Below are positions 8,203 through 33,413 of a stretch of 64,000 nucleotides of DNA, one piece after another. Below the pieces are notes generated by a model. It was not told the origin of the DNA. It saw only the letters and a program-made list of their open reading frames with translations, and did not search any database. Source of the DNA: Patescibacteria group bacterium (GTDB lineage Bacteria > Patescibacteriota > Patescibacteriia > JBDRGY01). Within the stretch, counting starts at the first letter, position 1. Each line of letters begins with the position of its first letter. The DNA lies in assembly GCA_043817315.1 (NCBI GenBank), contig JBDRGY010000016.1, forward strand, positions 4,863 to 68,862. Reading direction: 5' to 3'. The position numbers were made by a program, and so were the translations under genes.

Positions 8203-11200
8203 TTATTTTTGCAAATAGATGTCAAGGCTGTTTAACTTCTTGGTGTCTTTGGGCACCTCCAGGCACAATTGAAACAGTTGGTAACCCGGATCCTCCACGT
8301 GCACCTGATACTTCGCCTCATTAATGTTGAAAAAGAAAAATCCAACTTCATTGGTATTGATAGCCCGCTTAACCTTTTGCCCCTCATGGTTAAGGATTAT
8401 GACGTTAGCTCTATCGCGAGGCAATTTTGTCTGGCCGTCTAGGACTATACCCCAATACTTCTTCTTTAGTATCCGGTGTAAGGCCAAACCAACAACAATA
8501 GCTGCCTGCAGTAGTAAGATTAATAGGGCAGATGTTTTGGGCCAAATTGTGAGATAAAGGAAATTAAGGATGAAGTTAACAATAAGAACGATTAAGGCGG
8601 TGTGATACAGTTTTTTGTTTAATCTTTCGATGCCAGGATTTATTTGGCTAATGGGAACATTGATAAAAGGCTGTTTCTCTTTTACTTCTACCACGGCTCC
8701 AATATTACTATGAGGGTATCCTTTTTGAGGAAATCTTTTGACGTAAGCTGAGGGAAAATAGTAGCCAAATTTCCTGGCGGCTAAACCGTAAGTACCTGAT
8801 ATCAAATTGAATCCGTATTTACCTTCAGAGTCGGTAACCGTCTTTTTGACCTCTCCAGTAAGAGTATTGGTAATTTTTACTAAAACTCTGCCCAAGGGCC
8901 GTTTAGTCTGATCGTCATAGACGACACCCCAATAGTTTTTCTTTTCTTTCTTTATTAAGGCTAAAATCCAAAGCCAAAGCCAGAATAACCAAAAAGGAAT
9001 ATCCAGCCAGGTTAATAGACTATTGAATAATAATCCTATTCCCACCAGCAGAAGGAGTATTAATAAGATCAGCCCACTGGTTTCTACTATTCTGGGAAGG
9101 GCATCGTTTATCCTAGAAATCAACTCTTTGAGAAAATTGGGAATTTCCCTGATTGTTCTTTTGGTCTTGTCTATTAACGGTAATTCCGGGTCAGACCAAA
9201 TTTCCTTTATTTTTTCTACGGCCGTCGGTGGTACCGGAACTTCTACCACAAAATTAATTTCATCTGACCACCTACTCGTCACTCCTCGCTCATCAACTGC
9301 CCTGGCAATCACCTTATACTGACCATTTTTTAGCGGCTCCGGTAAATCAATTTGCCAGTTTCCCTTGCTGTCCGACTCTGTTATTAAATCATAGATAATT
9401 TGATCATCCTGAATAATCCTGACACTAATGGTTGCATTGGGAACAGCGATACCCTTTATGGTTATCAGGGGGGTGTCAAAAATCTGTCCGTCATAGGCTG
9501 GCTGAGTAATGGTTGGAGGTGGAATTTCGTATGATTTCTCTGTAATCTCAAAAGTTGTAGCCACCCCACTAATCATATTAGGGGCAGCAGCCGTAACACT
9601 ATAAGTGCCAGTTACGTCAGTCGCCTCTTCTGACAAAGTAGCATCAGCTATACCAAATTGATTTGTGGTTCCCGACAAGGTAATAACTCTTCCGGTGGGC
9701 TTGACGACGTAAAAAGAAACGGTAACACCTGAAACTTTATTGCCGTAACTATCAGTAACTGCCGTTGAAGTAATGGTAATGTTATCTCCGATCAGACCGT
9801 CATGGCCAGAGGCCGTAATTGTGCCAAGTTGGATTCCGGCTACCACGTCGATTTCGGTTTGGCTGCCAAAAATCGTGGGGTCATCTACATCAAGAGCTGT
9901 GACTGAACAAACGCCGACTGAATAGAAAATTACACTGCTTAAAAAGGTATGACTGCCAGAATCAGCTGCGGTAAAGGTGTAGTGTCCTGGCAAGATGGAG
10001 TTACTGCAATCTGAGCTAAAAGAAATTGTCCCGGTATAATCAGTTACGACATTGTTAGCAACATCCAAGGCAACTACTGTTACCTGACTGGCTTGCCCGG
10101 TTGTAATCGGGTCGAGGATGTCTTTTACTTCAAAGTGTGTGATCCCGGGCACTGGAGGTGGAGGGGGCGAAGGGGGCGGAGGTACAACCGGTACGGTAAT
10201 ATCAAAGGTGGTAGCCGTCCCTGTTGTTAAATTATCGGCCACCGCGGTTACACTATAAGCTCCCCCTAAATTTGTATCGGTACCGGCTAAAGTGGCACTG
10301 GCTATTCCAGAACTAGCAGTAGTGCCGGTTAAAGTAACGATGGACCCATCCGGCTTTGCGATATTAAATGTCACTGTTAGTCCGGCTACCCGGTTGCCAA
10401 AAGAGTCCGTTACCACTGAAGAAGTAATGGTGATGCTATCTCCAACCTGACCATCATGGCCGGAGGCGGTAATAGTGCCAGACTGATAGCCGGCAATTAC
10501 ATCGATATCAATTTGACTACCGCTAATCGAGGGGTGGGTTACGTCCGCGGCAGTAACAGCACAGACTCCTGCCCTTAAAAAGGCCACACTGTCAGAGAAA
10601 GTGTGAATCCCGGAATCTGAAGAGGTAAAAGTATAATTGGCGGGTAAGAAATTATTGGAACAATCTGAAGAAAAAGAAATGGTACCGGTGTAGTTGGTTA
10701 CCACCTGGTTATTGCTATCTAAAGCCGTAACGATCACCTGGCTAAAGGCTCCGGCTTCAATAGGATCAGTAATTCCTTCCACCTTTAAGTGAGTGGCCAC
10801 GGGCGGACCGACCAGAGAAGTTATCTCAAAAGTAGTGGCAGCTCCGGTAGTCATGTTGGACGCCGCAGCCGTAACTGCGTAAGTTCCAGCACTACTGGTC
10901 TGGGCTCCTGGTAAAGTTGCTGTAGCAATTCCCGAACTATTAGTGATACCCGTTAGAGTAGCCACTGTGCTATCTGGCTTGGTAATACTAAAAGTAACAG
11001 TAACGCCGGATACAAGATTGTTGTAAGCGTCTTTGACTACCGATGAAGTGATGGTAATATCGTCCCCCACCTGGCCGTCATGACCGGAAGCGGTAATGGT
11101 GCCGGTTTGCTGACCCGCTACCACATCAATATTAGTTTGACTTCCGGTAATTGAAGCGTGGGTGACATCAGTGGCCGTTACCGCACAAACGCTAACCGTA

Positions 11201-12177
11201 TTAAAAGAAACTGCACTGGCAAATGTCTTAGCTCCAGAATCAGCCCCTAGAAAAGTATAATTACTTGGTAGCGTTGCCCCGGCACAATCAGAAGAAAAAG
11301 TGACGGTGCCGGTATAGGCGGTGGCCACGTTATTAAAATTATCCAGGGCAATAACTTCTACATTACTAGTTTGGCCAGCTGTGATCGGGTCGGTAACCCC
11401 GCTGACCTGCAGGTGAGTAGCTGCCCCCGGATTGAGGGTTAAGTCAATTGTTTCCGAAACCGAGCCGCTTAATGCCTTAATGGTTACTGTTCCGCTGACT
11501 GTGCCGGCAGTATAGATTATCTGAGCCTGGCCCGAAGTGGTTGTAGCTGTGCCAGACGATAAAGAACCAGTGCCCGTTTCGATAGAAAAAGTAACTGTAG
11601 TCCCGTCAGCCACTGTATTCCCAAACTGATCGGTTAAAGTGGCAGTAATGGTAGAGGTGTCACTGCCATTAGCAGTCATGCTCAGAGCGCTGGCTGCCAA
11701 ACTAATATTGGCAACTGGACCAGGCAGAACAGTAATGTTGGCCTGGGAGGCGGTAACTCCCGGATTACCTACTTCGGTGACTGTCACCGTCTGTTCGCCA
11801 ACTGTAATTAACCGAACACTATTTATAAATGTGTGGCTGCCACAATCAGTGACCCTGACAAAAGTATAATCCCCTGGCAGCACAACCTGGGCATGGGGAT
11901 CCGTGGTGGTAAAATGAACTGTTTCTTCATAGGGACAGTGTAAGCCCCCTCCGGAGATAATAGCTTCTACCAGTACATTACTGTACTGGCCGGCTGTAAT
12001 CGGGTCGGTAATCCCTGATATTTCTAAATGGTCAAATACGCCAACGATAGACTGATAAAGTTGCGTTTGAGAGCCCTGAATTTTTTCATCCAACTGAAAA
12101 AGTTCCTCGTCTACTAAAAGAGGAACTGATCCTATGAGTAAAGCTAATAATAAAGCTATAAGATGTCGTTTGGACAT
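8203..12177 (-). CDS. Giant cell-surface protein with tandem Ig-like/Big_1 (invasin/intimin-like) modules, Pro-rich linker, and C-terminal region with two carboxypeptidase-regulatory-like domains interleaved with TM helices
   Basis: 1324 aa. N-terminal signal peptide. Three near-identical ~205-aa modules (…ITASGHDGQVGDxITITSSVV…VTF…). PPPPSPPPPPVP linker. C-terminal WGVVYDDQTKRPLGRVLV…GKYGF and WGIVLDGQTKLPRDRANV… beta-sandwich-like domains, each followed by hydrophobic segments. Confidence 0.8.
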   Translation of the reverse strand: MSKRHLIALLLALLIGSVPLLVDEELFQLDEKIQGSQTQLYQSIVGVFDHLEISGITDPITAGQYSNVLVEAIISGGGLHCPYEETVHFTTTDPHAQVVLPGDYTFVRVTDCGSHTFINSVRLITVGEQTVTVTEVGNPGVTASQANITVLPGPVANISLAASALSMTANGSDTSTITATLTDQFGNTVADGTTVTFSIETGTGSLSSGTATTTSGQAQIIYTAGTVSGTVTIKALSGSVSETIDLTLNPGAATHLQVSGVTDPITAGQTSNVEVIALDNFNNVATAYTGTVTFSSDCAGATLPSNYTFLGADSGAKTFASAVSFNTVSVCAVTATDVTHASITGSQTNIDVVAGQQTGTITASGHDGQVGDDITITSSVVKDAYNNLVSGVTVTFSITKPDSTVATLTGITNSSGIATATLPGAQTSSAGTYAVTAAASNMTTGAATTFEITSLVGPPVATHLKVEGITDPIEAGAFSQVIVTALDSNNQVVTNYTGTISFSSDCSNNFLPANYTFTSSDSGIHTFSDSVAFLRAGVCAVTAADVTHPSISGSQIDIDVIAGYQSGTITASGHDGQVGDSITITSSVVTDSFGNRVAGLTVTFNIAKPDGSIVTLTGTTASSGIASATLAGTDTNLGGAYSVTAVADNLTTGTATTFDITVPVVPPPPSPPPPPVPGITHFEVKDILDPITTGQASQVTVVALDVANNVVTDYTGTISFSSDCSNSILPGHYTFTAADSGSHTFLSSVIFYSVGVCSVTALDVDDPTIFGSQTEIDVVAGIQLGTITASGHDGLIGDNITITSTAVTDSYGNKVSGVTVSFYVVKPTGRVITLSGTTNQFGIADATLSEEATDVTGTYSVTAAAPNMISGVATTFEITEKSYEIPPPTITQPAYDGQIFDTPLITIKGIAVPNATISVRIIQDDQIIYDLITESDSKGNWQIDLPEPLKNGQYKVIARAVDERGVTSRWSDEINFVVEVPVPPTAVEKIKEIWSDPELPLIDKTKRTIREIPNFLKELISRINDALPRIVETSGLILLILLLLVGIGLLFNSLLTWLDIPFWLFWLWLWILALIKKEKKNYWGVVYDDQTKRPLGRVLVKITNTLTGEVKKTVTDSEGKYGFNLISGTYGLAARKFGYYFPSAYVKRFPQKGYPHSNIGAVVEVKEKQPFINVPISQINPGIERLNKKLYHTALIVLIVNFILNFLYLTIWPKTSALLILLLQAAIVVGLALHRILKKKYWGIVLDGQTKLPRDRANVIILNHEGQKVKRAINTNEVGFFFFNINEAKYQVHVEDPGYQLFQLCLEVPKDTKKLNSLDIYLQK
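9520..11430. repeat. Three tandem ~650-bp coding repeats inside the giant surface-protein gene. A fourth divergent copy lies near 11700-12020
   Basis: Protein-level modules aa ~250-455, 455-680 and 680-885 are 60-80 percent identical. Nucleotide blocks visibly recur (e.g. ...ccatcatggccggaggcggtaat...). Confidence 0.7.
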
Positions 12178-12240: not shown

Positions 12241-14406
12241 TCAATTCCTACGGTATATTCTCAAACTATTGGAGATAACCGTCACGTCAGAGAACCCCAT
12301 GGCCAAGGCCGCCACCATCGGATTGACAAAGCCTAAAATGGCCAGGGGAATGGCTAAGACATTATAGAAGAAGGCCCAGAAAAGATTTTGTTTGATAATC
12401 TTAAAAGTTTTTTGAGATAACTTTATGGCTTCTGCAATTTTTATGGGATTACTTTGCATTAGTATAATGTTCCCTGATTCTTTGGCAATGTCGGTCCCCT
12501 TGCCCATGGCAATGCCTAAGTCAGCTTGGACCAAGGAAGGGGCGTCGTTAATGCCATCGCCGGCAAAGACTACTTTTTCTCCCTCTTCTTGTAATTGCTT
12601 TACTTTCTGAGATTTCTGATCTGGTAAAACCTCAGCCAAAACATTTCTTATGCCTAACTTCTTGGCTACCGATTGAGCCGTATTTTTATTATCTCCGGTT
12701 ATCATAATTTCTTTCAATCCCATCTTCTTTATCTCCGCAATGGTATGAGCTGCTGTTCCTCGGACAGTATCGGCCAGGGCGATTAATCCGATTACTTTTC
12801 CCTCCAAAACCACAAAAACAGCGGTGTTACCTTCTTTCTCCAGAATCGTTTTCCGATTTATAACTTCTTGGTTTAATTCAATAGTATTCTCCTGCAACAA
12901 ATTTTTTGTGCCGATTATCATTTTCTTATTATCAACGTGACCGATCACCCCTTTGCCACTTATTACCTTAAAATCAGTCACCGGCAATAACTCGATTTTT
13001 TGCTTTTTAGCTTTTTGGTAAATAGCTTGAGCTAAAGGATGTTCTGAGTTTTTTTCTAAAGAAGCGGCTAAACGCAACAATTCTTTGGAATCAAAAGTGT
13101 TGTCTATTGGCGAAATCTTTTTTACTTCAACTTCTCCCTTAGTCAAAGTGCCTGTTTTGTCAAAAACTACAGTCGTTATGTTTTTGGCCCGTTCAAAACT
13201 TTCACCGTCTTTAATCAAAATTCCTGACCTGGCCCCCACACCCGAGCCAACCATTATAGCAATAGGCGTAGCAATGCCCAGGGCACAAGGACAAGCAATA
13301 ATTAAAACAGAAACAGCCGGAATTATTGCCTCGGTAATGTCATTTTTAAAGAAAAACCAACCGACAAAGGTGAGAATGGCAACTGCTATTACGATCGGAA
13401 CAAATATACCAGAAATTTTATCCGCTAATTTCTGTACTGGCGCTTTGTAAGCCTGGGCCTCTTCCACTGTTTTTATTATCTGAGCCAATACAGTGCCCGA
13501 ACCCACTTGGCTGACTTTTATTTTCAAGACTCCGTCCTGATTGATGGTTCCCCCAAATACTTGATCGTCAACAACTTTGGTTACTGGTAAACTTTCTCCG
13601 GTCAACATCGATTCATCAACTCCGGAAGATCCGTCTATTACTATTCCATCCAGCGGAATCTTCTCGCTTGGTTTGATCAACAAAATATTTCCGATATCAA
13701 TCTGATCAACTTCCACTTCTCTTTCCTGACCATTGTTATCAATTAATCTGGCCTTTTTAGCACCCAATTCCATTAATTTTTTCATGGCTAAAGAAGCCTT
13801 GCCCTTGGTTTTTATCTCCATATAGCGGCCCAGCAAGATCAAGGTGGTGATAGTGGCGGCTCCCTCAAAATACTCAGGGTGGCCAGCTATTATTGCCCAA
13901 ACGCTGTAAATAAAGGCAGTTAACGTCCCCAGGGAAATTAGAGTGTCCATGTTGGCCTTGAATCTTTTGAGTTGCTTCAACATTCCCACATGGAATTGCC
14001 AACCAAAAACAAAGACAATGATGCCGGTAACAATCATCAGAATCCAGTCGGTATATTCAATCCCAGCCAGTTGACCAACTATCTCCCACGACCAAAACAT
14101 CCGAATAAATATCGGTATGGTCAGGGCTGCTGATATTAAAACTTTGATTAATTCTTTTCGTTCTTCTTGGTTTTTTGCTGATTTCTCTTCGCTTGGCTCC
14201 TCGACAGTATAGCCCGCATCTTTAATAACCATCTTTAACCCTTCCAGTTTGATTGCTGATTCATCGTATTCAACCATGGCCTTGCCTGTGGCGAAATTAA
14301 CGCTGCTGGTTTTAACACCCCCCGCTTTCTTTAAGGCCTTATCAATACTAACGGCACAAGCCGCACAATGCATATCTTGGATTTTTAATACAGTTTTTTC
14401 TGCCAT
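12241..14406 (-). CDS. copA: Copper-translocating P1B-type ATPase
   Basis: N-terminal HMA domain [11 protein letters not shown] transmembrane metal site ([12 protein letters not shown]). DKTGTLT phosphorylation site. GDGINDAP hinge. Confidence 0.92.
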
Positions 14407-14431
14407 ATGTTTTTAATAAATAAGCACGTTA

Positions 14432-14460
14432 CTGGGAATAAACCAAGGGCTTATTCCCAG
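14432..14460 (-). terminator. Perfect 10-bp-stem hairpin between the HMA-DsbA gene and copA (partial terminator/attenuator)
   Basis: ctgggaataa-accaagggc-ttattcccag. On the minus strand it is followed by an A/T-rich stretch. Confidence 0.4.
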
Positions 14461-14526
14461 CCACCTAATTATTTTTAACAACAAGGATCCATGTTATTGT
14501 CTCCTTATATTAATTTTTTAACGACC

Positions 14527-15543
14527 TTATTCCTCATTTAGTATGCTGTCGATAAGGGATTGCATCTGGTCATAAGGCAAGGCCCCTGGCACTAATTGAC
14601 CGTTAATTATATTGCCCGGTGTTCCAGAGACCCCCACATTACCTCCTCCTTGAAAATCACCGTCTACCTTGGAGGCATATTTATCCGAATCAACACAATC
14701 ATCGAACTGACTTGTATTAAGGCCCATGTCTTTAGCTGCTTGTTTCAGATATGAAGGAGTAATGCTGGATTGGTTGGCAAACAGCTCGTCAGTGTACTCC
14801 CAGAATTTGTCTTGATCAGCCGCACACTCCGAAGCTTCGGCTGCATCCCTGGCATAAGAATGGAGAGAGTCTAGGGGGAAGTGTTTATAGATCCATCGGA
14901 CATCGTTGGGATAATTGGCCATTACTTGCTTCATAGTATCGTGGAATTTGCTACAGTACGGGCACTGGAAATCTGAATATTCTACGATGGTAACCGGCGC
15001 GTTAAAATCCCCTCTGATATGATCATCTTGGGTAACTTCGACATCAACAACAGTTGGCGAAGGAGTGGGACTGGGTGATGGAGAAGGGACCGGTGTAGGA
15101 TCTGCCACAGCAACATTATCTCCAGCTACCTGTGGCGTACCACTTGCTGAATCGCCCTCGTTTGAGTTCATTCCTAATACCACAAAAAAACCAACAGTCG
15201 AAATTACTGATATACCAATCAATGCCCCAAGGATCATTGCCTTCTTTGGTGAGTCGGTACTTTGTTCTATACCTTCATCACCGTCTGTTGTCTCACTTCT
15301 TCTATCAATTTTTTCTTCCGCTCCTTCCACCTCGTAGTCCCCCGCTTGTTCAACCACTTGATGAATTTCAGATTCTTTAATCTTTTGTTCGTTATAAAAT
15401 ACAGAACCCTTCCCTGAATCATAGTTTACTTTTACTCTGTCAATTCCTGGTTTATTTTTTAATCTTTCCTCGATTAAAAGAGCACAGGAATTGCAGTGCA
15501 TGCCTTGGATTTTGAAAGTTGTTTTTTGCATAGTTTTATTCAT
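14527..15543 (-). CDS. Fusion protein: cytoplasmic HMA metal-binding domain, TM anchor, Pro/Ser/Thr linker, extracytoplasmic DsbA-like thioredoxin domain
   Basis: MHCNSCALLIEERL (HMA MxCxxC). One hydrophobic helix. PTPVPSPSPSPTPSPT linker. DsbA-type active site FQCPYCSKFH and C-terminal SGTP motif. Confidence 0.75.
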   Translation of the reverse strand: MNKTMQKTTFKIQGMHCNSCALLIEERLKNKPGIDRVKVNYDSGKGSVFYNEQKIKESEIHQVVEQAGDYEVEGAEEKIDRRSETTDGDEGIEQSTDSPKKAMILGALIGISVISTVGFFVVLGMNSNEGDSASGTPQVAGDNVAVADPTPVPSPSPSPTPSPTVVDVEVTQDDHIRGDFNAPVTIVEYSDFQCPYCSKFHDTMKQVMANYPNDVRWIYKHFPLDSLHSYARDAAEASECAADQDKFWEYTDELFANQSSITPSYLKQAAKDMGLNTSQFDDCVDSDKYASKVDGDFQGGGNVGVSGTPGNIINGQLVPGALPYDQMQSLIDSILNEE

Positions 15544-15563
15544 TAATCATTTTATTAATTAAA

Positions 15564-17069
15564 TTATTTTTGTTTAACCCTTGCACAACCACACCCTCCT
15601 TGCTGAGCAGCGGCACAATCTCCTCCACACGAACCATCTCCTGAGCAACCCGAGCCGGCTGGCAGATCAACTGCCTCCAGCTCCAAATCTCCTTGGGACG
15701 GTTTAGCGTCATTTTCTGTTACCACGAATTTCCCCCAAACCATCTGCATCCAGCAGCTGAACTTGAGATCTCCTAATTCATCGGGTGTAAATTCAATGAC
15801 ATTTTCTCCATACTCTAGTGGTTTTCTAATGTTATATGTCGGCATGATAATTTCATCTGTACAACCACTCATCTGTTTCACATCAATAATCCAGCGAACC
15901 GGTATATCTTTCTTTACATACATTACATTCGGCGAATACCCCCGGTAAGTCAGCTCCATTTTGGCCACTTGATATTCTTCCACGTCTCCGGTTATTAAAT
16001 ATTCGGTTTGGCTAACTTCTTCCTGCGAAACAAAACCTCTAAAACCGTAGCCGAAATTGATCATGCCTCTGTTCAACATAAATAGTCCTAAAATTATTAC
16101 TATCGCTCCAGATATTTTCATCACTTGTTTAATCCGCTGCCGGCTAATCAGTGAAATGAAAGCACCAAACCCGAACATCAAAGGGACAGTGCCCAGGGCA
16201 TAAACCCCCATCGACAAAGCTCCTCTGGTGATACTGCCAGAAGCTAAAGCGTATATCTGCATGGCCTGTAAAGGTCCGCAGGGCATAAAACCATTTAGCA
16301 ACCCGATAATGAATGGCCCTTTGGGCTTTTTGGTGTGTCGCTGTTTAAAAAGAAAACGTGCAATAAACGAAGGGGTTTTTAGTTTTAGTTTCTGCAGCCA
16401 TCGAAACTCAGTGACCAGAGACAAGCCCATTAATACCATAAAACCGCCAGCCACTAAGGTAACCGTTCCAGTAAAAGTGGGATTGATCGCGAAAAACGAC
16501 CCAAAGCCACCTAAGATACCTCCAATTACGCTATATGAAATGAGCCGCCCTAGATTATACTGCCAGTGAGGTAGAGACGATTTTACTTTATGGTCTTTGT
16601 TGTCAGCTTGATGTTTGGCAGTATAAGTAACCACCAAACCTCCACACATGCCTACACAATGAAAACTGACCAAAAGACCAATCACAAATATTAACCAATA
16701 ACCGATTCTTTCTTCGTTTAATTTGGAAAGAATTTCTAAAACGCCGAATTGTTTTATTAAATAATAGCCTAAGACAAAAACAATTAATAAGATCCCGGCA
16801 ATAATGAATCTTTTGGGAATGTTTAATTTTTTTCGTGGCCCTGTTCTGCCTACGATTTTATCCTTTACTTGATAATCAAGTTTACTGATTGCCTCAAAAA
16901 TTTTCTTTTTGGAAATTTTCTGATCATCGTACTCTATCAGACATGCTCCTGTTTGATGGTTGACTTCAATATCCTTTACACCTCCTAAAACATCTACTTC
17001 TGTTTCAATTAAGGTTTTGCAACCTTTGCAGTAAGTTCCCTCTATTTGGATGTTTATTTTTTTTAGCAT
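15564..17069 (-). CDS. HMA-like N-terminal domain fused to a DsbD_2-like polytopic membrane domain and a C-terminal cupredoxin-like domain with a Cys/Gly-rich tail
   Basis: N-terminal YCKGC ferredoxin-like domain. Membrane core with HCVGMCGG and MPCGP motifs. Soluble beta-rich C-terminus. Tail GSGCSGDGSCGGDCAAAQQGGCGCA. Confidence 0.6.
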   Translation of the reverse strand: MLKKINIQIEGTYCKGCKTLIETEVDVLGGVKDIEVNHQTGACLIEYDDQKISKKKIFEAISKLDYQVKDKIVGRTGPRKKLNIPKRFIIAGILLIVFVLGYYLIKQFGVLEILSKLNEERIGYWLIFVIGLLVSFHCVGMCGGLVVTYTAKHQADNKDHKVKSSLPHWQYNLGRLISYSVIGGILGGFGSFFAINPTFTGTVTLVAGGFMVLMGLSLVTEFRWLQKLKLKTPSFIARFLFKQRHTKKPKGPFIIGLLNGFMPCGPLQAMQIYALASGSITRGALSMGVYALGTVPLMFGFGAFISLISRQRIKQVMKISGAIVIILGLFMLNRGMINFGYGFRGFVSQEEVSQTEYLITGDVEEYQVAKMELTYRGYSPNVMYVKKDIPVRWIIDVKQMSGCTDEIIMPTYNIRKPLEYGENVIEFTPDELGDLKFSCWMQMVWGKFVVTENDAKPSQGDLELEAVDLPAGSGCSGDGSCGGDCAAAQQGGCGCARVKQK

Positions 17070-17077
17070 GGTATTGA

Positions 17078-17893
17078 TTAAAAAAGTTCAGCCACTTGTT
17101 CTATATCTGATTGGTCAATGGCTAGCTTGCCGTTTACAACTTGCAAATTGGGATTTATCGGCCCGGGGTTGCAGCCACCTTTTTCTGATGCAATTTTGGT
17201 TAACGGATATTGATTCCCACACGTTTTGCAAATCATATTATCTCCCTGTTGGTAAAAACCCATTCGTGTATCAAAACAAACCTGGCAAGCATTGGCAGCT
17301 GCCCGATAAATTCCATTTTTATCTTTGACTACAAAAAAGTAAACGATTTTTTCACTAGGCATCTCTACATTATAAAAGTGGGCTTTTCCGTCATCAAGCG
17401 TGCTGGCTGTCACACTTACTTGTTTATTTTCCAGAGTAACTTTCTCTCCCTGCTCCCCTGTAAAATCAGGCTGGGTGGCTTGGCTTCCTTTTACGTTATT
17501 AACATTTTGAGCGGCTGATGATTTACTTTGATTGGAATCTCCTTGTCCGGAACTGAATAGCCAATAACCCGAAACTAGAACAACCAATGTCACTCCGGCA
17601 ATAATCAATCTTTTGGGTGTAAACATTTGTTTTTTTTGCTTGGCTTCATTTTGTTTTTTTTGTTCAGGCTTGTTCACGGGTTTCCCTTTGACTCGATAAT
17701 CGAGTTTATTGATTTCTTCAAAAATCTTCTTTTTAGAAATTTTCTGATCATCAAATTCTGCCCAAGCTTCTCCTGTCCCAGAATCAACCTCGATGTTATT
17801 TACTCCTTCCAGTACATTTATCTCGGTTTCTATCTTGGTTTTACATTTTTGGCAATGAGTTCCTTCTATTTGAATATTTATTGTTTTAAGCAT
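17078..17893 (-). CDS. HMA-like N-terminal domain fused via a TM helix to an extracytoplasmic CxxC...CxxC domain
   Basis: N-terminus MLKTINIQIEGTHCQKCKTKIE is about 65 percent identical to the N-terminus of the preceding gene. C-terminal CQVCFD...CKTCGNQYP Cys pairs. Confidence 0.55.
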   Translation of the reverse strand: MLKTINIQIEGTHCQKCKTKIETEINVLEGVNNIEVDSGTGEAWAEFDDQKISKKKIFEEINKLDYRVKGKPVNKPEQKKQNEAKQKKQMFTPKRLIIAGVTLVVLVSGYWLFSSGQGDSNQSKSSAAQNVNNVKGSQATQPDFTGEQGEKVTLENKQVSVTASTLDDGKAHFYNVEMPSEKIVYFFVVKDKNGIYRAAANACQVCFDTRMGFYQQGDNMICKTCGNQYPLTKIASEKGGCNPGPINPNLQVVNGKLAIDQSDIEQVAELF

Positions 17894-17899
17894 ATATTT

Positions 17900-18265
17900 T
17901 TACTCACACTTATTACTTGTAAATTCGCAAGATGAGCCAGTGTCTCTAATTAAACCACTTTGACACTGCGGACATGGCTTCTCTCCCCTAGCGATGAATT
18001 GATCACAGGCACAGGTGCCTGCCTGATGATTATTCCATTGGTTGGCTTCCATGAAACACATAGTACAGGGAGGATTAATACAGCATCCATAATCTCCAGC
18101 TGCTACCGCCTTGCTTATAGCTAAGTCTCTTTCTTCGATTATCCTACTTAACATTTCGCCTGGGCCCAAGTTTTCAAAAGCAGGATTCATAATTGTTAAA
18201 ATTAGAAATCCAATTACTCCCCCTATTAGAAACATCGTCAACCAGGTAAGAATTTTCTTAGTCAT
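17900..18265 (-). CDS. Membrane-anchored Cys-rich putative metal-binding protein (PCYCGC-like motif)
   Basis: 121 aa. N-terminal TM helix. 12 Cys including GCCINPPCTMC, TCAC and PCPQC. Confidence 0.45.
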   Translation of the reverse strand: MTKKILTWLTMFLIGGVIGFLILTIMNPAFENLGPGEMLSRIIEERDLAISKAVAAGDYGCCINPPCTMCFMEANQWNNHQAGTCACDQFIARGEKPCPQCQSGLIRDTGSSCEFTSNKCE

Positions 18266-18267
18266 GA

Positions 18268-18546
18268 TTACTTATTAAATAATTTGGTGACGGTTAAAAT
18301 TTCTTTAACCATCTCCTGTTTTCTTTTCTCGTTGGTTGTGCCCATAGCTTTTTTGAAGCAAGTATCGAGATGGTTTTCCATCAACATTTGATGGGCTGAT
18401 TTTAATAGCCCAATAACCGCTAAGTTTTGTTGCATAATGTCTATGCAATATTCATTGTCCTCAAGCATCTGGACAATTTTTGCGATGTGGCTCTGGGCTT
18501 TTTTAAAATTGATCAACGATTTCTCTTTGTGTTTGGTCATAGTCAT
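18268..18546 (-). CDS. csoR: CsoR/RcnR-family metal-sensing transcriptional repressor
   Basis: 92 aa, all-helical DUF156-type. Conserved Cys (YCIDIM), His (SAHQMLMENH) and Cys (DTC) in Cu(I)-CsoR positions. Confidence 0.85.
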   Translation of the reverse strand: MTMTKHKEKSLINFKKAQSHIAKIVQMLEDNEYCIDIMQQNLAVIGLLKSAHQMLMENHLDTCFKKAMGTTNEKRKQEMVKEILTVTKLFNK

Positions 18547-18561
18547 AAAATCAATGCTTAA

Positions 18562-18584
18562 TACCTATACCATAGGTATAGGTA
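18562..18584. promoter_or_regulatory. Candidate CsoR operator: perfect 10-bp inverted repeat with 3-bp spacer just downstream of a putative -35/-10 and upstream of csoR
   Basis: TACCTATACC-ata-GGTATAGGTA. Resembles the CsoR ATACC...GGTAT-type pseudo-palindrome. Preceded on the coding strand by TTGACT and an A/T-rich -10. Confidence 0.5.
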
Positions 18585-18637
18585 TAATAATACAAACAAA
18601 AAATAAGTCAATTAAGACTTATCAACAGTCCCCATTA

Positions 18638-19486
18638 TTAGCCGAACATCAACCAGGCCGGTTTGAATAACATTAGTAACCCAATTACTAACATCAATAT
18701 TCCCCCGATTAGAGCTGAGGCACGAGTGTATTTACTGGTCAGGCCTACTGCCCTAAGGGTAACCATAGCTACAATAAAGACAATCATATCATCCAGCATA
18801 AAGATGAAGATATACAGGGCTATATAGAGATAATATTGAGAGGTAGGAATTTCTGACATAGTCAGAATCTGGGTATAAACAACTGGCAAGCCGGCCGAAC
18901 AGATTACCTCAACTAAGTTAACTGCAAAGGCCAGCAGGATAATCCCGCCCAAGGCCAGCCAAAACTGTTTTTTTTGAGTAATGGTTCTCAGCTTGTCAAA
19001 AATCTGGCGCCTTTTCTCTCCTTCACTGGCCGGACAACCCGGTCGATTGTCCCACCATTTTTTCAAATTGTAATAGGCAGATCCCAGGGCTACTAAACCA
19101 ATTATGGTCCGGACCCATCGGAAAAATCCCAAGAAAGTGAGAACATTGAGCCAGGCCACCATAAATAGGAAATAGACAAAGGCCGAAGCCAAGATAAAAG
19201 TGGAGCCGAAAATCCACATTCTTTTTCGGTCTTTCATGTTCAGCAGTAGACTAATCAAAAATAACAACACCCACATAGCGCAGGGATTAAAGCCGTCCAG
19301 GGCACCGATAATCACTGTCAAAATTGGCAAGGACACTGATGCAGTTTTTAGTTCACCGATAAACGGTAAATTGATAGTTTCTGGAATTTCCGTAAATTCC
19401 TGGGCCGCAGCTCCTTGAACCAAACAAAATAAAAATAGGACTACTATTAATCCTATTAATAAACGTTTTGTTTTTTTATAACTCAT
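18638..19486 (-). CDS. ccdA: CcdA/DsbD-family transmembrane thiol-disulfide electron transporter
   Basis: Polytopic. Conserved GFNPC motif in TM1 and second Cys in a later TM (VICSAGLPV). Confidence 0.8.
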   Translation of the reverse strand: MSYKKTKRLLIGLIVVLFLFCLVQGAAAQEFTEIPETINLPFIGELKTASVSLPILTVIIGALDGFNPCAMWVLLFLISLLLNMKDRKRMWIFGSTFILASAFVYFLFMVAWLNVLTFLGFFRWVRTIIGLVALGSAYYNLKKWWDNRPGCPASEGEKRRQIFDKLRTITQKKQFWLALGGIILLAFAVNLVEVICSAGLPVVYTQILTMSEIPTSQYYLYIALYIFIFMLDDMIVFIVAMVTLRAVGLTSKYTRASALIGGILMLVIGLLMLFKPAWLMFG

Positions 19487-19989
19487 TGCTTGCCCAGCTT
19501 TCTAATCACAAAAACCACAACCACCACCAGAACTAACGTTCCTCCCAGAGTATACCAAACCAGACTACTATCTGATTGATTCCCCTGAAAGCTACTGATA
19601 ATTTCTGCTATCTGGTTGCTACAATTACCCGCCAAACATTTATCTATCTTTTCCTTGATCTGGGTTCCGGTCAGATCGGCATCGTAAAAGCCGCCTACGT
19701 ATTCATCGTTAATAAAAGTTACCGGTACTCCCCTAACATCAGCATCGAGTGATTTGCCTATTTCTTTGAGCAAATTTGCATTTCCGGGATCATTGTAGGT
19801 TTCGTACCTTATAATCTCTACCTCGGGGTACTGATCAGGCAGAGTGGCCAAAAACTCTTCTTCCTCAGCACAATGCGGGCAGCCCTCTCCATAAAAAAAG
19901 TAAAGACTAACCTCCTGAGCCAATACTGGTCCGGCTCGGAATATAAGTGATAAAAAAATGATTGCTAATAAAAATTTAAGTTTGTTCAC
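19483..19989 (-). CDS. Secreted, membrane-anchored thioredoxin-like oxidoreductase (CPHC active site)
   Basis: Signal peptide. GEGCPHCAEEEEFL. Second CxxxC (CLAGNC). C-terminal TM helix. Overlaps ccdA by 4 nt. Confidence 0.7.
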   Translation of the reverse strand: MNKLKFLLAIIFLSLIFRAGPVLAQEVSLYFFYGEGCPHCAEEEEFLATLPDQYPEVEIIRYETYNDPGNANLLKEIGKSLDADVRGVPVTFINDEYVGGFYDADLTGTQIKEKIDKCLAGNCSNQIAEIISSFQGNQSDSSLVWYTLGGTLVLVVVVVFVIRKLGKQ

Positions 19990-19990
19990 T

Positions 19991-20257
19991 CTATTTCTCC
20001 TTATTGTTCTCCAAGATTGAGATTAATTCTTGTTTATCCACTTCCCCATATATTCTTTTAAATTCCTGGCCCGATTTGTCTAAAAAAATAAAACAGGGGT
20101 AATCGGTAATGTTATAATTCTTAACATATTCTGGATTTTCGTCAACATCCATATATTTTGTTTCCAACCAAGGTAATTCCTTTTCAATCTCTTCCCAGCG
20201 CGGTTTCATCACCAGGCAGCCGGCACACCAGATAGCTCCGAACTTTAATACTTTCAT
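19991..20257 (-). CDS. Small thioredoxin (WCAGC)
   Basis: 88 aa. WCAGC active-site motif and thioredoxin fold pattern. Confidence 0.75.
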   Translation of the reverse strand: MKVLKFGAIWCAGCLVMKPRWEEIEKELPWLETKYMDVDENPEYVKNYNITDYPCFIFLDKSGQEFKRIYGEVDKQELISILENNKEK

Positions 20258-20259
20258 AT

Positions 20260-20538
20260 TTATTTCTTAATAATCTTTATTGCCTTTCCTTCTATTACGG
20301 CTTGACTGACCTTTTTATGGGCTGAGCTAATAATTCGTTGAAAAGTGCTTTGAGAGGTATTCATCATCTTGGCCGCCTTTATCTGGTCATAGTCTTTGAC
20401 ATCCTTTAATCTTAAGGATTCTACTTCTTCCGGTGTTAATTCGATTGAACGCAAAGAACGCAACGGCACCCCCTGTGGTTTAAAATAATGGGCCCGGGCT
20501 CTAAACCTTATTCGTCTGCACCTTCTTGGTCTGGGCAT
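20260..20538 (-). CDS. DUF134/UPF0251 family putative DNA-binding protein
   Basis: MPRPRRCRRIRF...F.P.G N-terminal signature and sigma-70 region-4-like HTH. Preceded by an extended -10 TGTTATAAT on the coding strand. Confidence 0.8.
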   Translation of the reverse strand: MPRPRRCRRIRFRARAHYFKPQGVPLRSLRSIELTPEEVESLRLKDVKDYDQIKAAKMMNTSQSTFQRIISSAHKKVSQAVIEGKAIKIIKK

Positions 20539-20633
20539 ATCTATTAGTTATTATAACAATTTTGACATTTAAATAAAGTTAACTAGAATATAAATGCGGG
20601 GAGCCCCCTGGAATTTATCCCAGAGGGCTCTAT

Positions 20634-20891
20634 TTACTTGGCTGAAGATAGGTCCTTTTTTACTTTAGTAATTTCAGCCAAATCTTCCTTTAACATCTTT
20701 TCTTCCTGGTTTAAGGCATCTAGCTCATCTGCCTTAGTCCAATTCATCCGATAACCACCTTGCCTGGAAAACCCGCGACCCAAACCTCTGCCACAACCTC
20801 TTGAGCCATAACCGGCTCCACAAGGACCCATTCCTCGTCCTGCTCCGGGACCACCGCCCCAGACCGGACCTTGTCCATCATATCCTGACAT
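20634..20891 (-). CDS. DUF5320-like small protein: Gly/Arg-rich N-terminus with two Cys, C-terminal coiled coil
   Basis: MSGYDGQGPVWGGGPGAGRGMGPCGAGYGSRGCGRGLGRG...coiled-coil tail. ATG at 20891 with RBS GGGAGG 8 nt upstream. The track's GTG at 20900 is probably not the start. Confidence 0.6.
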   Translation of the reverse strand: MSGYDGQGPVWGGGPGAGRGMGPCGAGYGSRGCGRGLGRGFSRQGGYRMNWTKADELDALNQEEKMLKEDLAEITKVKKDLSSAK

Positions 20892-20914
20892 CGTTCTCAC
20901 CTCCCTTCATAGTT

Positions 20915-20973
20915 AAATTCTAAATTCGAAGCACTAAATCAGAAACAAATTCAAAATTCCAATATCTAAATTC
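20915..20973 (-). promoter_or_regulatory. Array of five GAATTT hexamers (two GAATTTnGAATTT 13-mers plus one single) upstream of the DUF5320 gene
   Basis: Coding-strand sequence GAATTTaGAATTT-N21-GAATTTtGAATTT-N14-GAATTT immediately 5' of the RBS. Confidence 0.35.
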
Positions 20974-21214
20974 AAAACGTATTCTTTATATAGTTTGGAA
21001 TTTAAGATTTGGAGCATTGGATGTTGTTTAGTATTTCGGATTTAGGATTTATAATTTTCAATGAACAGGGGAGCTTATCCACAGAAACTGGGTTATGAAT
21101 ATTTACCCATTTGGCTAATCTTAGCTCTTTCATGGGGTTATGGGTATTTACCCATAACTAATCATATCATACTAAAAAAACCTGTCAAGAGGACAGGTCA
21201 AATTTTATTCGTCT

Positions 21215-21964
21215 TTACTCTAAAAGAAGCAGCAGTAGCATTAAACCGATTCCCACCAGAAAAATTAGCAACTGTAATATACTCCTGCCGATCTTGGTTT
21301 CTTTTTTTAATTCGGGGATTAAATCTGCTGTAGCAATGTAAATAAACCCACCAATGGTAAGCGGGACAACAAAACTTAAAATATTATCTAGTTGCTCGTT
21401 TAAAGACAATATTACTATTGCCCCAACAATCGCCAGAAGGGCGGTTAGAAAATTGGTGAGTAAAGCTTTCTTCCGAGAAAAACCAGCGTGCAGCAATACT
21501 CCAAAATCACCAATTTCCTGAGGAACCTCGTGGAGAATTACAGCGACACTGGTGGCAATTCCCACTGGGATACTAACCAGAAAACTTCCGGCGATGATCA
21601 TGCCGTCAATCAAATTGTGCAAGCCATCTCCGATTAAATTGGTATAGGCAAAGGGGTGGGGATGATCATCTGATGTCGGAATATGGCAATGCCGCCAATA
21701 AAGAACCTTTTCTAGAATGAAAAATATGACAATCCCCAAAAGAATGTATAGAGAAAGCTGCAGTTCAGTACCACAGGCTTCAAAGGCTTCGGGCAGTAAA
21801 TGGATAAAAGCACCGCCTAGCAGACCGCCCGCTGACAAGCTAACCAGAAAAAGCAGGGCTTTTTTTAATTTCTCTTGAGAAACGGAAAAACTAAATACCC
21901 CGATTAGGGAAATCAGGCTGATAACAACCACTGAACCTAAGGTATAAAGCCAAGTTTCGGTCAT
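21215..21964 (-). CDS. zupT: ZIP-family divalent metal transporter (ZupT-like)
   Basis: HEVPQEIGDFGVLLHAGFS signature. 8 TM segments. Confidence 0.85.
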   Translation of the reverse strand: MTETWLYTLGSVVVISLISLIGVFSFSVSQEKLKKALLFLVSLSAGGLLGGAFIHLLPEAFEACGTELQLSLYILLGIVIFFILEKVLYWRHCHIPTSDDHPHPFAYTNLIGDGLHNLIDGMIIAGSFLVSIPVGIATSVAVILHEVPQEIGDFGVLLHAGFSRKKALLTNFLTALLAIVGAIVILSLNEQLDNILSFVVPLTIGGFIYIATADLIPELKKETKIGRSILQLLIFLVGIGLMLLLLLLE

Positions 21965-22022
21965 AAAATCATTATAACAAAAAAGGCCCGATTATATAAC
22001 CGTGCCTCAATTAACAAACCCC

Positions 22023-23456
22023 TTATTCCCTTCTCAGGGCATCAATGGCATCCATTTTGGCAGCTTTGGCTGCCGGGTATAATCCAGAAACCAACCCCAC
22101 TAAAGTGGAAAAAGCAATCACTCCTACTAATAGATACCAGGGAATAACGATAATGCTATCAACGGAAAAGCTTTGGTCTGACATAATCCGGCCAGCCACC
22201 AAATTGACTATTTTAGACAACCCATAACCTGAGGCTGCTCCCAAAAAGCCGCCCCAAAAACCGATAAAGGCCGCTTCAATGGTAAATAGTCTCCTGACTG
22301 CTGCCCGAGAAGCACCCACTGCTTTCATCACACCAATCTCTCTGGTTCTTTCCATGGTAGCCATCACCATAGTATTAATAATGCCGATAGCTGCCACTAC
22401 CAGGGCAATGCCACCAATGGCACCCAAAACTATTTGGATTATTAAAAATAGTTTTAAGATATCGTCCAAAAAATCTTTGGCCGTGATTGCTCCCAATTCC
22501 AGCTCTTCAACGGCTGTGGCAACCGCTTCTACGTTCTCAGCATTGTTAACTAAAGCGATCAAAGACTGGTAGCCGTCCTCGGCAATCTTGTCTCTGGAGA
22601 CTAATTGTCCTATTGGCTGTGGCCAATCGGAATCAGCATATTGAACTCCGTATTGGGTTTGTTGTTCCATTTCTTGGCGGATAACTTCCACTCTCTGGTA
22701 TTCTTCCTCGGTTGGTTCTCCCCAATTCTGTTCCGTCATCAGTCGCCTAGCCCAGCCATCGGTGACGTAACTATTTCTATCATTCATTCCCGGATTAGAG
22801 ACACCTATTATCTCCGCTTCAATGTCGTAAGATCTCTGCCAATCTTCATTGGGGTCTCCCGGTTCCGGAACTCCTGTTTCTAAACTATGATAGCCCTCCC
22901 AAGTGGTAAAAGTAACTTTCTTACCCAAAACATCATTGGGATCTAATTCAAAATAATCAACAAAGGCATGGCCGAGAATTATTTTATTCATTTCATCATC
23001 AGAGGTAAAATTGCGGCCAGCAATTAAATCAACTTGACTAGCCTCGTTAATTCTCATACTTGATACATTGGCATTGGGTATTTTTTTCTCTTGTCCCTCA
23101 ATCAGCATGTTCTGTAGCGGGTGAACATGGACTGTAGGATTAACCGCTATTACATTAGTGATAGCTTCAACTTTGGCAATAATTTCGTCGTCTAATTTTA
23201 TTCCATCATCAGTCTCCCCAAATCCTCCGCCAAAAAAGGTGGCTTCGATATCTTGAGTGGGTAAGACGGTTACTTGATTCAAAACTCCGGCCTTTTCCAG
23301 CTGCTGCATAAATACGTTTTGGGCGCCCATGGCAATAGAAGTTAGGCTGACTACAGCCAAGGCACCGATTAATACAGCAATGATAGTCAAGAAGGTGCGG
23401 ATCTTTCTACGCCATAAGTTCTTGAAGGCCATTTTTAGATAATCAAAAAAGCGCAT
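22023..23456 (-). CDS. ABC transporter permease, FtsX/MacB-like with large periplasmic domain
   Basis: N-terminal TM, ~250-aa periplasmic insert, C-terminal FtsX-type 3-TM bundle. Confidence 0.8.
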   Translation of the reverse strand: MRFFDYLKMAFKNLWRRKIRTFLTIIAVLIGALAVVSLTSIAMGAQNVFMQQLEKAGVLNQVTVLPTQDIEATFFGGGFGETDDGIKLDDEIIAKVEAITNVIAVNPTVHVHPLQNMLIEGQEKKIPNANVSSMRINEASQVDLIAGRNFTSDDEMNKIILGHAFVDYFELDPNDVLGKKVTFTTWEGYHSLETGVPEPGDPNEDWQRSYDIEAEIIGVSNPGMNDRNSYVTDGWARRLMTEQNWGEPTEEEYQRVEVIRQEMEQQTQYGVQYADSDWPQPIGQLVSRDKIAEDGYQSLIALVNNAENVEAVATAVEELELGAITAKDFLDDILKLFLIIQIVLGAIGGIALVVAAIGIINTMVMATMERTREIGVMKAVGASRAAVRRLFTIEAAFIGFWGGFLGAASGYGLSKIVNLVAGRIMSDQSFSVDSIIVIPWYLLVGVIAFSTLVGLVSGLYPAAKAAKMDAIDALRRE

Positions 23457-27715: not shown

Positions 27716-27826
27716 AGACTACCTCCTTTTGGAGAAGAACTGTGACTTCAAGGAACAGATAGTAAAAAAATGATAACAAGGATATGGCCGACTGTCAATA
27801 ATATATAACCAAGTTATTCTACTCTG

Positions 27827-32281: not shown

Positions 32282-32297
32282 AAGGGGGTAAAACCAG

Positions 32298-33359: not shown

Positions 33360-33413
33360 TTCAGGTACCTGCAGCAAGACATTTGTTGGTTCTACTCAAA
33401 GGAGGGATCGGTT

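Follow-up and report, generated by a model that had tools for sequence, protein, structure and literature searches.

A predicted CsoR-repressed copper-defence operon of a Patescibacteria group bacterium encodes a conserved HMA-DsbD_2-CupA-like membrane protein and adjoins a probably separable thioredoxin cassette

Do the eleven copper- and thiol-related genes that lie packed on one strand of a Patescibacteria group bacterium genome form a single envelope system, and what might the multidomain membrane proteins among them do? We addressed this question in a window of 64,000 nucleotides (positions 4,863 to 68,862 of contig JBDRGY010000016.1, assembly GCA_043817315.1; positions below count from the first letter of the window). 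A sequence-only reading of positions 12241-20900 had described two tight units and proposed that they make up one co-regulated system for envelope copper detoxification and disulfide maintenance. All eleven open reading frames (ORFs) were verified at their coordinates on the minus strand, on which the promoter-like and hairpin elements in the spacers between them also lie, and the short spacers bear out the two tight units. Our analysis suggests that the region probably consists of two adjacent, separable modules, named A (20900-18638) and B (18611-12241), and that module B is likely a CsoR-repressed copper-defence operon of six genes starting at its predicted operator. On balance, we read the locus as combining copper efflux with surface Cu(I) capture and thiol repair, together with a candidate ATP-independent Cu(I) relay. 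Its most interesting element is not the row of three HMA fusions but a widespread HMA-DsbD_2-CupA-like protein with a predicted outward CupA domain. Domains were called at or above the Pfam gathering score, with NCBIfam as a second library; promoter, terminator-like and hairpin calls come from a consensus scan and RNA folding of the spacers and denote putative elements; loci of relatives are labelled L001-L091.

Module B opens with a gene for a CsoR-family repressor (18268-18546, 92 amino acids; aa), which scores 58.7 bits against Pfam PF02583 (Trns_repr_metal, cut-off 22.8). Its best PDB match is Mycobacterium tuberculosis CsoR (2hh7, E = 3.5e-12), to which the YCxD and NHLxTC motifs align, and Cys34, His59 and Cys63 sit at the Cu(I) ligand positions (Cys36, His61 and Cys65 in M. 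tuberculosis). In the consensus scan, a promoter-like site upstream of csoR (TTGACT, 16-nt spacer, TATTAT; 18584-18611) agreed at 10 of 12 positions. Its -10 element is overlapped by a putative CsoR operator (18561-18585), read from the sequence as a perfect 11-3-11 inverted repeat, ATACCTATACC-TAT-GGTATAGGTAT, which lies 15 nt upstream of the csoR ATG. This palindrome occurs once in the window and had no match in 100 shuffles; no second CsoR box turned up elsewhere in the window, be it ahead of copA, DUF134 or the ZIP gene, either with up to three mismatches or with a degenerate pattern. A related TACCTATACC-N3-GGTATAGGTA box stands upstream of csoR in L001, L006, L010, L012 and L019. Behind csoR, the genes of a Cys-rich protein, an HMA-FtrD-like protein, the HMA-DsbD_2-cupredoxin fusion and an HMA-DsbA-like protein follow at spacers of 2, 6, 8 and 20 nt, respectively, and copA follows after a wider gap of 120 nt. 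CopA (12241-14406, 721 aa) is a P1B-type Cu(I) ATPase (Pfam E1-E2_ATPase 194, Hydrolase 119 and HMA 51 bits) with a single N-terminal HMA domain (MHCAAC) and the membrane CPC motif (IIACPCALG). The earlier description of a CsoR-led copper operon ending in CopA thus agrees with the Pfam matches, the ligands and the palindrome. The hairpin that had been noticed before copA is real as well: the spacer folds at -38.5 kcal/mol (z = -5.7; none of 200 shuffles reached this stability) and holds a long hairpin at 14418-14474 with an extended 14-bp core stem and no clear U-run, whose role may be attenuation, processing or stabilisation.

The fusion gene of this operon (15564-17069) encodes an HMA domain, a first transmembrane (TM) helix, a six-TM (6TM) DsbD_2 core, a CupA-like domain and a Cys/Gly-rich tail. 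Pfam placed the HMA domain at residues 1-70 (34.3 bits, cut-off 24.8) and matched DsbD_2 (PF13386) at 172.3 bits over model positions 2-198 of 199, with the motifs FHCVGMCGG and MPCGPLQ in the core, whereas the Cupredoxin_1 match, at 27.0 bits, falls exactly at the cut-off. The latter region, approximately residues 365-452, is homologous to pneumococcal CupA (2mry/4f2e, E = 1e-15) and also matches the N-terminal CupA-like domain of pneumococcal CopA (4f2f, E = 1e-8). The first Cys and the Cys-x-Met-x-Met motif are kept in the CupA alignment, in which the ligands Cys403, Cys439, Met441 and Met443 of the fusion face CupA Cys74, Cys111, Met113 and Met115. We aligned 82 members of the fusion family (35-100% identity). 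The four CupA-type ligands are kept in 81-82 of the 82 members, and HMA Cys14 and Cys17, membrane His137, Cys138, Met141, Cys142 and Gly143, and membrane Met262 (80/82), Cys264, Gly265, Pro266 and Gln268 are all invariant or nearly so. Of the seven TM helices of the protein, six form the core and one serves as a linker, and the loops hold 24 Lys and Arg residues on the HMA side and 4 on the opposite side, from which the HMA domain is predicted to be cytoplasmic and the CupA-like domain external. The Acetobacterium locus L071 provides an independent line, since a paralogue encoded there at 11374-11880 is a CupA-like protein with a lipobox signal, implying that the domain can be exported. NCBIfam gave a weak match of the fusion to the arsenical efflux permease ArsG, and an identical (100%) NCBI protein is annotated by the Prokaryotic Genome Annotation Pipeline (PGAP) as a sulfite exporter TauE/SafE family protein.

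Many Firmicutes fusions have an extra ~150-170 aa after the CupA-like domain, with no Pfam match and often a CC/Cys-rich end; those of L028, L035 and L041 (Clostridium beijerinckii, C. magnum and Lacrimispora) are ~600-625 aa long. Stand-alone CupA-like proteins, TM-anchored in Patescibacteria and lipobox-bearing in Acetobacterium, are encoded in or beside cop clusters (L001 11507-11875, L002 2427-2753, the L071 gene above and L077 3648-4163), and in L001, L002 and L071 the gene directly follows the fusion gene, the slot that the HMA-DsbA-like gene occupies in the window.

To determine which genes accompany the fusion, we called ORFs in 85 loci of relatives, 21 closest and 64 distant, and searched them with the proteins of the window; a zero in the counts means no match at strict cut-offs, and looser labels were also applied. 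csoR lies in 20 of the 21 closest loci and in 3 of the 64 distant ones (5 with looser labels), and copA in 19/21 and 40/64. FtrD-like genes lie in 2/21 closest and 21/64 distant loci. The remaining genes were seen among the closest loci, with zero in the 64 distant ones: Cys-rich protein in 6/21, DsbA-like in 4/21, ZIP in 3/21 (looser labels add a ZIP gene in the Clostridium locus L052), and DUF134 and the thioredoxin/6TM cassette of module A in 2/21 each. From these counts, the conserved core consists of the fusion gene and copA, joined by csoR in bacteria of the Candidate Phyla Radiation (CPR). In various phyla, Clostridia and DPANN archaea included, the fusion gene often has an FtrD-like gene nearby. 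Among the matches listed, relatives with the same three Pfam domains come mostly from Patescibacteria. A scan of species-level genomes yielded 80 loci with the fusion, including Clostridia, DPANN archaea and others; the proteins of C. beijerinckii, C. magnum, Acetobacterium malicum, Lacrimispora and DPANN archaea are 34-40% identical over nearly the full length. The plasmid search returned a single near-full-length match, and because this lies on a 2.6-Mb replicon, the fusion gene is not typical plasmid cargo. The association with CsoR is not new, since in 2016 a computational study (PMC4938975) assigned two groups to the CsoR meta-regulon of Firmicutes from the gut: COG2836, which combines HMA and DsbD_2 and for which DUF2318 is listed too, and membrane proteins with DUF2318. 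Searches of the literature for experiments on COG2836, on DsbD_2 and copper, on PF13386/PF13473, on DUF134/DUF5320 and on copper in Patescibacteria yielded this prediction only.

The three consecutive proteins said to begin with HMA domains do so (37.4, 34.3 and 50.2 bits in gene order), and each continues with a membrane span and a Cys-containing domain predicted to lie outside the cell. In the HMA-FtrD-like protein (17078-17893), HMA covers residues 1-70 and an FtrD-like/DUF2318 domain (PF10080) residues 167-271, the latter at 92.2 bits against a cut-off of 26.3 and with CQVC, CKTC and GGCNP present. Residues 1-112 of this protein (HMA, linker and TM helix) share 69% identity with the first 104 residues of the fusion, and therefore the HMA-TM module was duplicated within the operon. 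Its nearest relatives, in L025 and L090, consist of a TM helix, a thioredoxin-like domain (CxxC) and the FtrD-like domain, not HMA, an arrangement that points to a possible functional link between the two modules. A metagenome scan for other HMA-FtrD fusions returned two relatives only, L090, with its thioredoxin-like domain instead of HMA, and L091, a 1.3-kb fragment that contains the FtrD-like part only. The HMA-DsbA-like protein (14527-15543) joins an HMA domain (residues 1-75), a TM helix, a Pro/Ser-rich linker and a DsbA-like thioredoxin domain with CPYC (Thioredoxin_4 107.7, DSBA 78.3 bits). Its HMA is closest to that of CopA (43% identity). The DsbA-like domain matches DsbA/MdbA/BdbD oxidases and ScsC copper-resistance proteins in the PDB equally, at about E = 1e-13, and has a sub-threshold NCBIfam match to the Rcas_1661 thioredoxin-like lipoprotein family. 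HMA was found on the FtrD-like or DsbA-like genes in none of the 85 related loci, so that HMA on these two proteins is a lineage-specific elaboration. No free-standing HMA ORF, that is, no free CopZ, was found in the window. The architecture is therefore not csoR-copZ-copA, as had been recognised, but the three fusions in a row, which had been singled out in that regard, are specific to this lineage, and the widespread element is the HMA-DsbD_2-cupredoxin gene by copA.

The gene between csoR and the first HMA protein (17900-18265) encodes a membrane-anchored Cys-rich protein of 121 aa with 10 Cys, not the 12 counted before. It has one TM segment (residues 5-23), and the rest is predicted to be outside the cell. 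Eight of its ten Cys are invariant in the family alignment, in the pattern CC-x4-C-x2-C ... C-x-C ... C-x2-C. The protein matched no Pfam family even at E <= 10, including PCYCGC (PF13798), which had been proposed as a family to search for, and ten distant relatives were likewise without any Pfam family. The family is small, with 98 clusters at E <= 1e-3 among 1.84 billion representatives, and its gene adjoins csoR or the DsbD_2 gene in L001, L003, L025 and L090.

Module A begins with the DUF5320 gene (20634-20900, 88 aa; PF17253, 31.7 bits, cut-off 27), whose product has a Gly/Arg-rich N-terminal part and a helical C-terminal part. Directly after its stop codon lies a terminator-like 13-bp G+C-rich hairpin (20601-20630; spacer -27.7 kcal/mol, z = -4.2), so that both the family assignment and the hairpin of the sequence-only reading stand. 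A 95-nt gap separates it from DUF134 (20260-20538, 92 aa; PF02001, 70.8 bits), likewise assigned before, a putative DNA-binding regulator with a weak sigma-70 region-4-like NCBIfam match, which heads the tight unit of the module (unit 1); the DUF5320-DUF134 pair also occurs in L001, L085 and L087. At spacers of 2, 1 and -4 nt follow a thioredoxin, an exported thioredoxin-like protein and a 6TM protein, and 91 nt separate the last from csoR. Of the two thioredoxins proposed earlier, the first (19991-20257, 88 aa, WCAGC) is confirmed at 51.9 bits by the Thioredoxin family and, having no TM or hydrophobic segment, was classed as cytoplasmic, whereas the exported, thioredoxin/glutaredoxin-like one (19483-19989, 168 aa, CPHC) has just sub-threshold Glutaredoxin/TraF scores. 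Hydrophobic segments at residues 6-24 and 144-162 of the latter resemble a signal and a C-terminal membrane anchor. The cytoplasmic thioredoxin gene stands directly upstream of the Trx-like/6TM gene in L014, L085, L087 and L088.

The 6TM protein (18638-19486, 282 aa) had been called CcdA. It belongs to no described family: the name found no Pfam, NCBIfam or PDB sequence match, and only the anatomy is CcdA-like. The motifs DGFNPCAMW (Cys69) and NLVExxCSAGLP (Cys196) each contain an invariant Cys, and a third, near-invariant one (Cys151) sits in a K/R-rich loop with a predicted cytoplasmic position. The AlphaFold2 (AF2) model, with a predicted local distance difference test score (pLDDT) of 76, shows six core helices after an N-terminal anchor; one conserved Cys lies in each of TM1 and TM4, and Trx-fold partners are present on both sides of the membrane. 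At the level of sequence and profile, we rejected an assignment to CcdA/DsbD because no Pfam or NCBIfam match appeared even at E <= 10 (DsbD_TM and DsbD_2 included). No PDB match was obtained with the single sequence or the profile, and the comparison with the DsbD_2 profile reached an hhalign probability of 10%. Evidence from the fold is weak, a Foldseek search giving nothing significant and no significant link to CcdA. The protein is CcdA-like in anatomy and gene context yet unplaceable as CcdA. Its homologues, more than 7000 and without a Pfam domain, are mostly ~400 aa long, with an exported Trx-like domain fused to them. The Trx-like and 6TM genes of the window, which overlap by 4 nt, correspond to the two halves of the gene that is fused in most homologues; the 6TM half carries its own N-terminal signal-like segment and the Trx-like half its C-terminal anchor, so the pair looks like a gene fission that kept the topology of both parts.

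These features suggest the following scheme. Cu(I) binding would free CsoR from its operator, and the six genes would be transcribed, with the strong hairpin before copA possibly modulating the last one. CopA would pump cytosolic Cu(I) out, and the tethered CopZ-like HMA domains may pick up Cu(I) on the inner side of the membrane and pass it to CopA; as they are tethered, the outer domains of the HMA proteins would end up beside the pump. The outer face would bear four Cys-rich modules, namely the 8-Cys protein, the FtrD-like domain, the CupA-like Cys2Met2 domain with its Cys/Gly tail and the DsbA-like CPYC domain, which could trap Cu(I) once it has been expelled, and could repair or forestall the mis-oxidation of surface thiols that copper catalyses. 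The fusion protein, in the reading that we favour, would relay Cu(I) across the membrane via its His/Cys/Met site. Module A would, like CcdA/DsbD, move reducing equivalents outward and supply the cell surface in general with them; it might keep the Cys-rich surface proteins of module B reduced, and would be neither dedicated to them nor controlled by CsoR.

Alternatively, units 1 and 2 could be one regulon, as first proposed, with the Trx/6TM proteins dedicated to the cop accessory proteins. The two units adjoin on the same strand, and between them lies only a weak terminator-like stem (8 bp, A+T-rich, with a U-run; 18602-18623; spacer fold -32.1 kcal/mol, z = -5.8), which overlaps the csoR -35 element. 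Every surface domain of module B needs reduced cysteines, DUF134 occurs near cop genes in L001 and L012, and in L013 and L014 copA has the Trx/6TM cassette as a neighbour, the genes being ordered differently, so that a loose functional affinity of the cassette with cop genes is possible. However, the cassette lies within 10 kb in just 2 of the 21 closest cop loci and occurs (as DUF5320, DUF134, Trx, Trx-like/6TM) without cop genes in L085 and L087 (Patescibacteria). L088 and L089, whose 6TM protein is 81% identical, match the window collinearly to the left and right of the cop block (L088 3-1711 aligns to window 20346-18645, and L088 2184-6190, encoding a 1315-aa Big_1 surface protein, to window 12244-8210) and have a dCMP deaminase gene in place of the whole 6.4-kb csoR-copA block. 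The cop operon is therefore an indel relative to this syntenic relative. The block shows no compositional break (G+C 0.403 vs 0.415 in unit 1), and a search for direct or inverted repeats around it as insertion scars gave one shared 10-mer only, which is unconvincing. The lone CsoR box sits downstream of unit 1, which ends in the terminator-like stem ahead of the csoR promoter and has its own putative regulator and, 11 nt upstream of the DUF134 start codon, an extended -10-like element, TGTTATAAT (20550-20558), read from the sequence. This element is putative and its distance from the start codon is short, which weighs against the separation; the consensus scan did not score it as a full -35/-10 site. 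Nevertheless, we consider a single regulon unlikely and retain the two-module reading. The electron flow that we assign to unit 1 could also be reversed, the CPHC protein introducing disulfides like DsbA and the 6TM protein re-oxidising it like DsbB/VKOR, with electrons moving inward. The motif CPHC is that of the oxidase DsbA of Escherichia coli, and the 6TM protein is not a demonstrable CcdA homologue, in sequence or by Foldseek; both count against a reductive role. On the other side, the thioredoxin gene conserved directly upstream in the cassette encodes a cytoplasmic protein, Cys151 in its predicted cytoplasmic loop is well placed to accept electrons, and to our knowledge Patescibacteria generally lack quinones and respiratory chains as electron acceptors. 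An oxidative unit 1 thus appears improbable.

For the fusion protein, the boldest proposal is that it is the prototype of an unrecognised ATP-independent Cu(I) relay, running from the HMA CxxC to HCxxMC plus MPC and then to the CupA Cys2Met2 site, with a CopA-centred efflux complex that the three tethered HMA domains would assemble and that would link the uptake of copper from the cytosol to its capture at the surface; we put this forward tentatively. It builds on ligand sets predicted inside (HMA CxxC), within (His137/Cys138/Met141/Cys142 and Met262/Cys264) and outside the membrane (the CupA ligands). Several points weigh against it. The topology derives from hydropathy, the positive-inside rule and an AF2 model with a pLDDT of 69 and a predicted template modelling score (pTM) of 0.45; we know of no precedent for an outward-facing CupA-like domain; DsbD-family cores are known for carrying electrons rather than as metal permeases; and a passive Cu+ exporter would run against the membrane potential. 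Moreover, pneumococcal CupA is described as acting at the cytoplasmic face, handing Cu(I) to CopA's metal-binding domain (PMC5646241). The DsbD_2 core may instead carry electrons rather than copper, keeping Cys403, Cys439 and the tail reduced, while HMA only senses cytosolic Cu(I) or delivers it to CopA; outside the cell, the reduced domain could then bind Cu(I) or act as a reductant of Cu(II). The match to DsbD_2 is what this explanation predicts of the core, and Firmicutes members also pass the DsbD_TM threshold. Cys138 and Cys264 lie in the first and fourth helices of the core, which we take to be the helices that hold the two catalytic cysteines of CcdA. The cysteines of pneumococcal CupA are reported to reduce Cu(II), to become oxidised in doing so and to need a reductant (PMC5646241), which also speaks for this explanation. 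An electron carrier, however, needs two Cys only, and the conservation of His137, Met141, Cys142 and Met262 beyond these makes the membrane residues look like a soft-metal site. In addition, the LysE superfamily, which includes DsbD, holds many metal exporters (PMC4608589), and together with the weak ArsG match this makes a transport role plausible, not proven. We regard the electron conduit as a possible but doubtful explanation and continue to favour the relay. A further alternative is that the operon serves another thiophilic metal or stress, such as Hg(II), Ag(I), Cd/Zn or persulfide, given that mer and other systems also have HMA, DsbA-like and MerT/MerP-like features; the three HMA domains score alike against the MerP, MerTP and CopZ models of NCBIfam, and the Rcas_1661 match points the same way. 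Yet the regulator has the Cu(I)-type C-H-C set and shows neither the His-rich N-terminus typical of RcnR nor the CstR pattern of two Cys only, the ATPase has CPC and is closest to CopA, the CupA-like domain retains the exact Cu(I) ligands, and no MerR, MerA or MerT genes are present. A different metal as the main substrate is thus very unlikely, and Ag(I) is possible as a co-substrate.

The surroundings of the two modules contain further metal- and envelope-related genes. Upstream of unit 1 and outside both operons lie a ZIP-family metal permease gene (21215-21964, minus strand; Pfam Zip, 162 bits) and a MacB/FtsX-type ABC transporter at 22023-24118 (together 21215-24118). ZIP genes recur beside cop clusters in L013, L014, L052 and L090, and MacB-type ABC genes lie near DUF134/DUF5320 in L001 and L085; the ZIP, ABC and cop genes may represent a looser metal/envelope neighbourhood. 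In the 314-nt A+T-rich region between ZIP and DUF5320 (20901-21214) lie a bidirectional terminator-like hairpin (21179-21199) and the promoter-like site that ranked first in the scan (TTGACA-16-TATGAT with TG; 21188-21161). GAATTTAGA also occurs there twice, near 20915-20975, at a distance of ~45 nt. Directly downstream of copA, a 1324-aa repeat-rich surface protein is encoded at 8203-12177; its L088 homologue has Big_1, Invasin_D3 and CarboxypepD_reg domains, and ~1-kb internal repeats match each other in BLAST. Farther away, two tRNA-Asn(GTT) genes (27826-27899 and 36949-37022) bracket a segment of higher G+C content (0.50-0.53 vs ~0.42; 30000-38000) whose products include an AAA ATPase and an ABC transporter with an OmpA domain on its binding protein. 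This segment may be foreign DNA; a duplication of the tRNA gene by integration was ruled out, as the two sequences differ substantially.

Copper defence in single-membrane organisms is usually seen as a repressor, CopZ and CopA. Many anaerobes, CPR bacteria and DPANN archaea add to this a conserved membrane protein that aligns copper-type ligands inside, within and outside the membrane. At the level of sequence comparison, what is new here is its CupA homology with all four apparent Cu(I) ligands, its invariant membrane His, Cys and Met residues, and the lineage-only HMA on FtrD-like and DsbA-like proteins. If the fusion does move Cu(I), it would represent a new transporter class and extend the DsbD family from electrons to metals; it would be the first metal-transporting member of that family and contain the first outward CupA domain, giving the CupA fold an extracellular role. 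The analysis also exposed two families without a Pfam model, the Trx-like plus 6TM two-Cys proteins with their more than 7000 homologues and the small 8-Cys surface family tied to cop operons. The former is likely the main route of surface thiol reduction in organisms without recognisable CcdA/DsbD. Cultured strains of Clostridium, Acetobacterium and Lacrimispora carry the fusion gene.

Finally, we compared the locus with known systems. With the CsoR-CopA(-CopZ) operons (cso of M. tuberculosis, copZA of Bacillus subtilis and csoR-copA-copZ of Listeria) it shares a C-H-C CsoR-family repressor, a palindromic operator at the promoter of csoR itself (autoregulation, here predicted), a P1B ATPase with HMA and CPC, and CopZ-type HMA domains. 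It differs from them in having no free CopZ, its HMA domains being tethered to three membrane proteins, and in the four genes of Cys-rich proteins with predicted extracytoplasmic domains that are added between csoR and copA. The operator is of an A/T-rich type (TACCTATACC), unlike the G-tract type, of which the Clostridium locus L068 provides an example. The CupA and CopA N-terminal domains of Streptococcus pneumoniae (4F2E, 2MRY and 4F2F) share with the fusion homology, the four ligands and the association with a Cu-responsive repressor and CopA. In the window, however, the domain is C-terminal in a 7-TM protein that also contains a DsbD_2 core and HMA, has a Cys/Gly-rich tail behind it and has a predicted outward orientation, whereas CupA has a single anchor and faces the cytoplasm; the window CopA has an HMA rather than a CupA-like metal-binding domain, and the regulator is CsoR, not CopY. 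Staphylococcus aureus CopL (copBL/copXL locus), an accessory surface-exposed Cu(I)-binding lipoprotein encoded with a copper ATPase, embodies the same concept with an unrelated fold (DUF1541), no membrane core and no HMA.

As in ScsABCD (Salmonella, Proteus) and the DsbD/CcdA pathways, copper tolerance would here be tied to a membrane thiol-electron carrier and extracytoplasmic DsbA/Trx-fold proteins, and the DsbA-like domain matches the ScsC structures 4gxz, 4xvw, 6mhh and 6nen (~E = 1e-13). The likeness is one of analogy: no ScsA or ScsB homologue turned up in the Pfam/NCBIfam searches, the domain is equally close to MdbA/BdbD oxidases, Scs proteins have no HMA tethering, the 6TM protein is no detectable DsbD/CcdA member and the host is single-membrane. 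The fetMP-fetABCDEF cluster of Campylobacter jejuni encodes FetA (DUF2318 plus YHS) with the thioredoxins FetE and FetF and a MacB-type ABC transporter (PMC10783030). FetA and the window protein both contain a DUF2318 domain with two CxxC, predicted to be periplasmic in FetA and extracytoplasmic in the window, and in both cases DUF2318 is coupled to Trx-fold proteins and lies near a MacB/FtsX-type ABC transporter. The Fet cluster differs in serving iron uptake under iron regulation and in the eight predicted TM domains of FetA. The closest precedent in gene content is the CsoR meta-regulon of gut Firmicutes, which comprises the same families, HMA plus DsbD_2 and DUF2318 membrane proteins, under predicted CsoR control (PMC4938975), and our comparison confirmed an FtrD-like gene near the fusion gene in the 21 distant loci counted above. 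That study dealt with regulon membership only and called the proteins possible chaperones, leaving the CupA-like domain, the topology and the invariant membrane residues unrecognised. To that set, the window adds HMA on the DUF2318 and DsbA-like proteins, and the 8-Cys protein.

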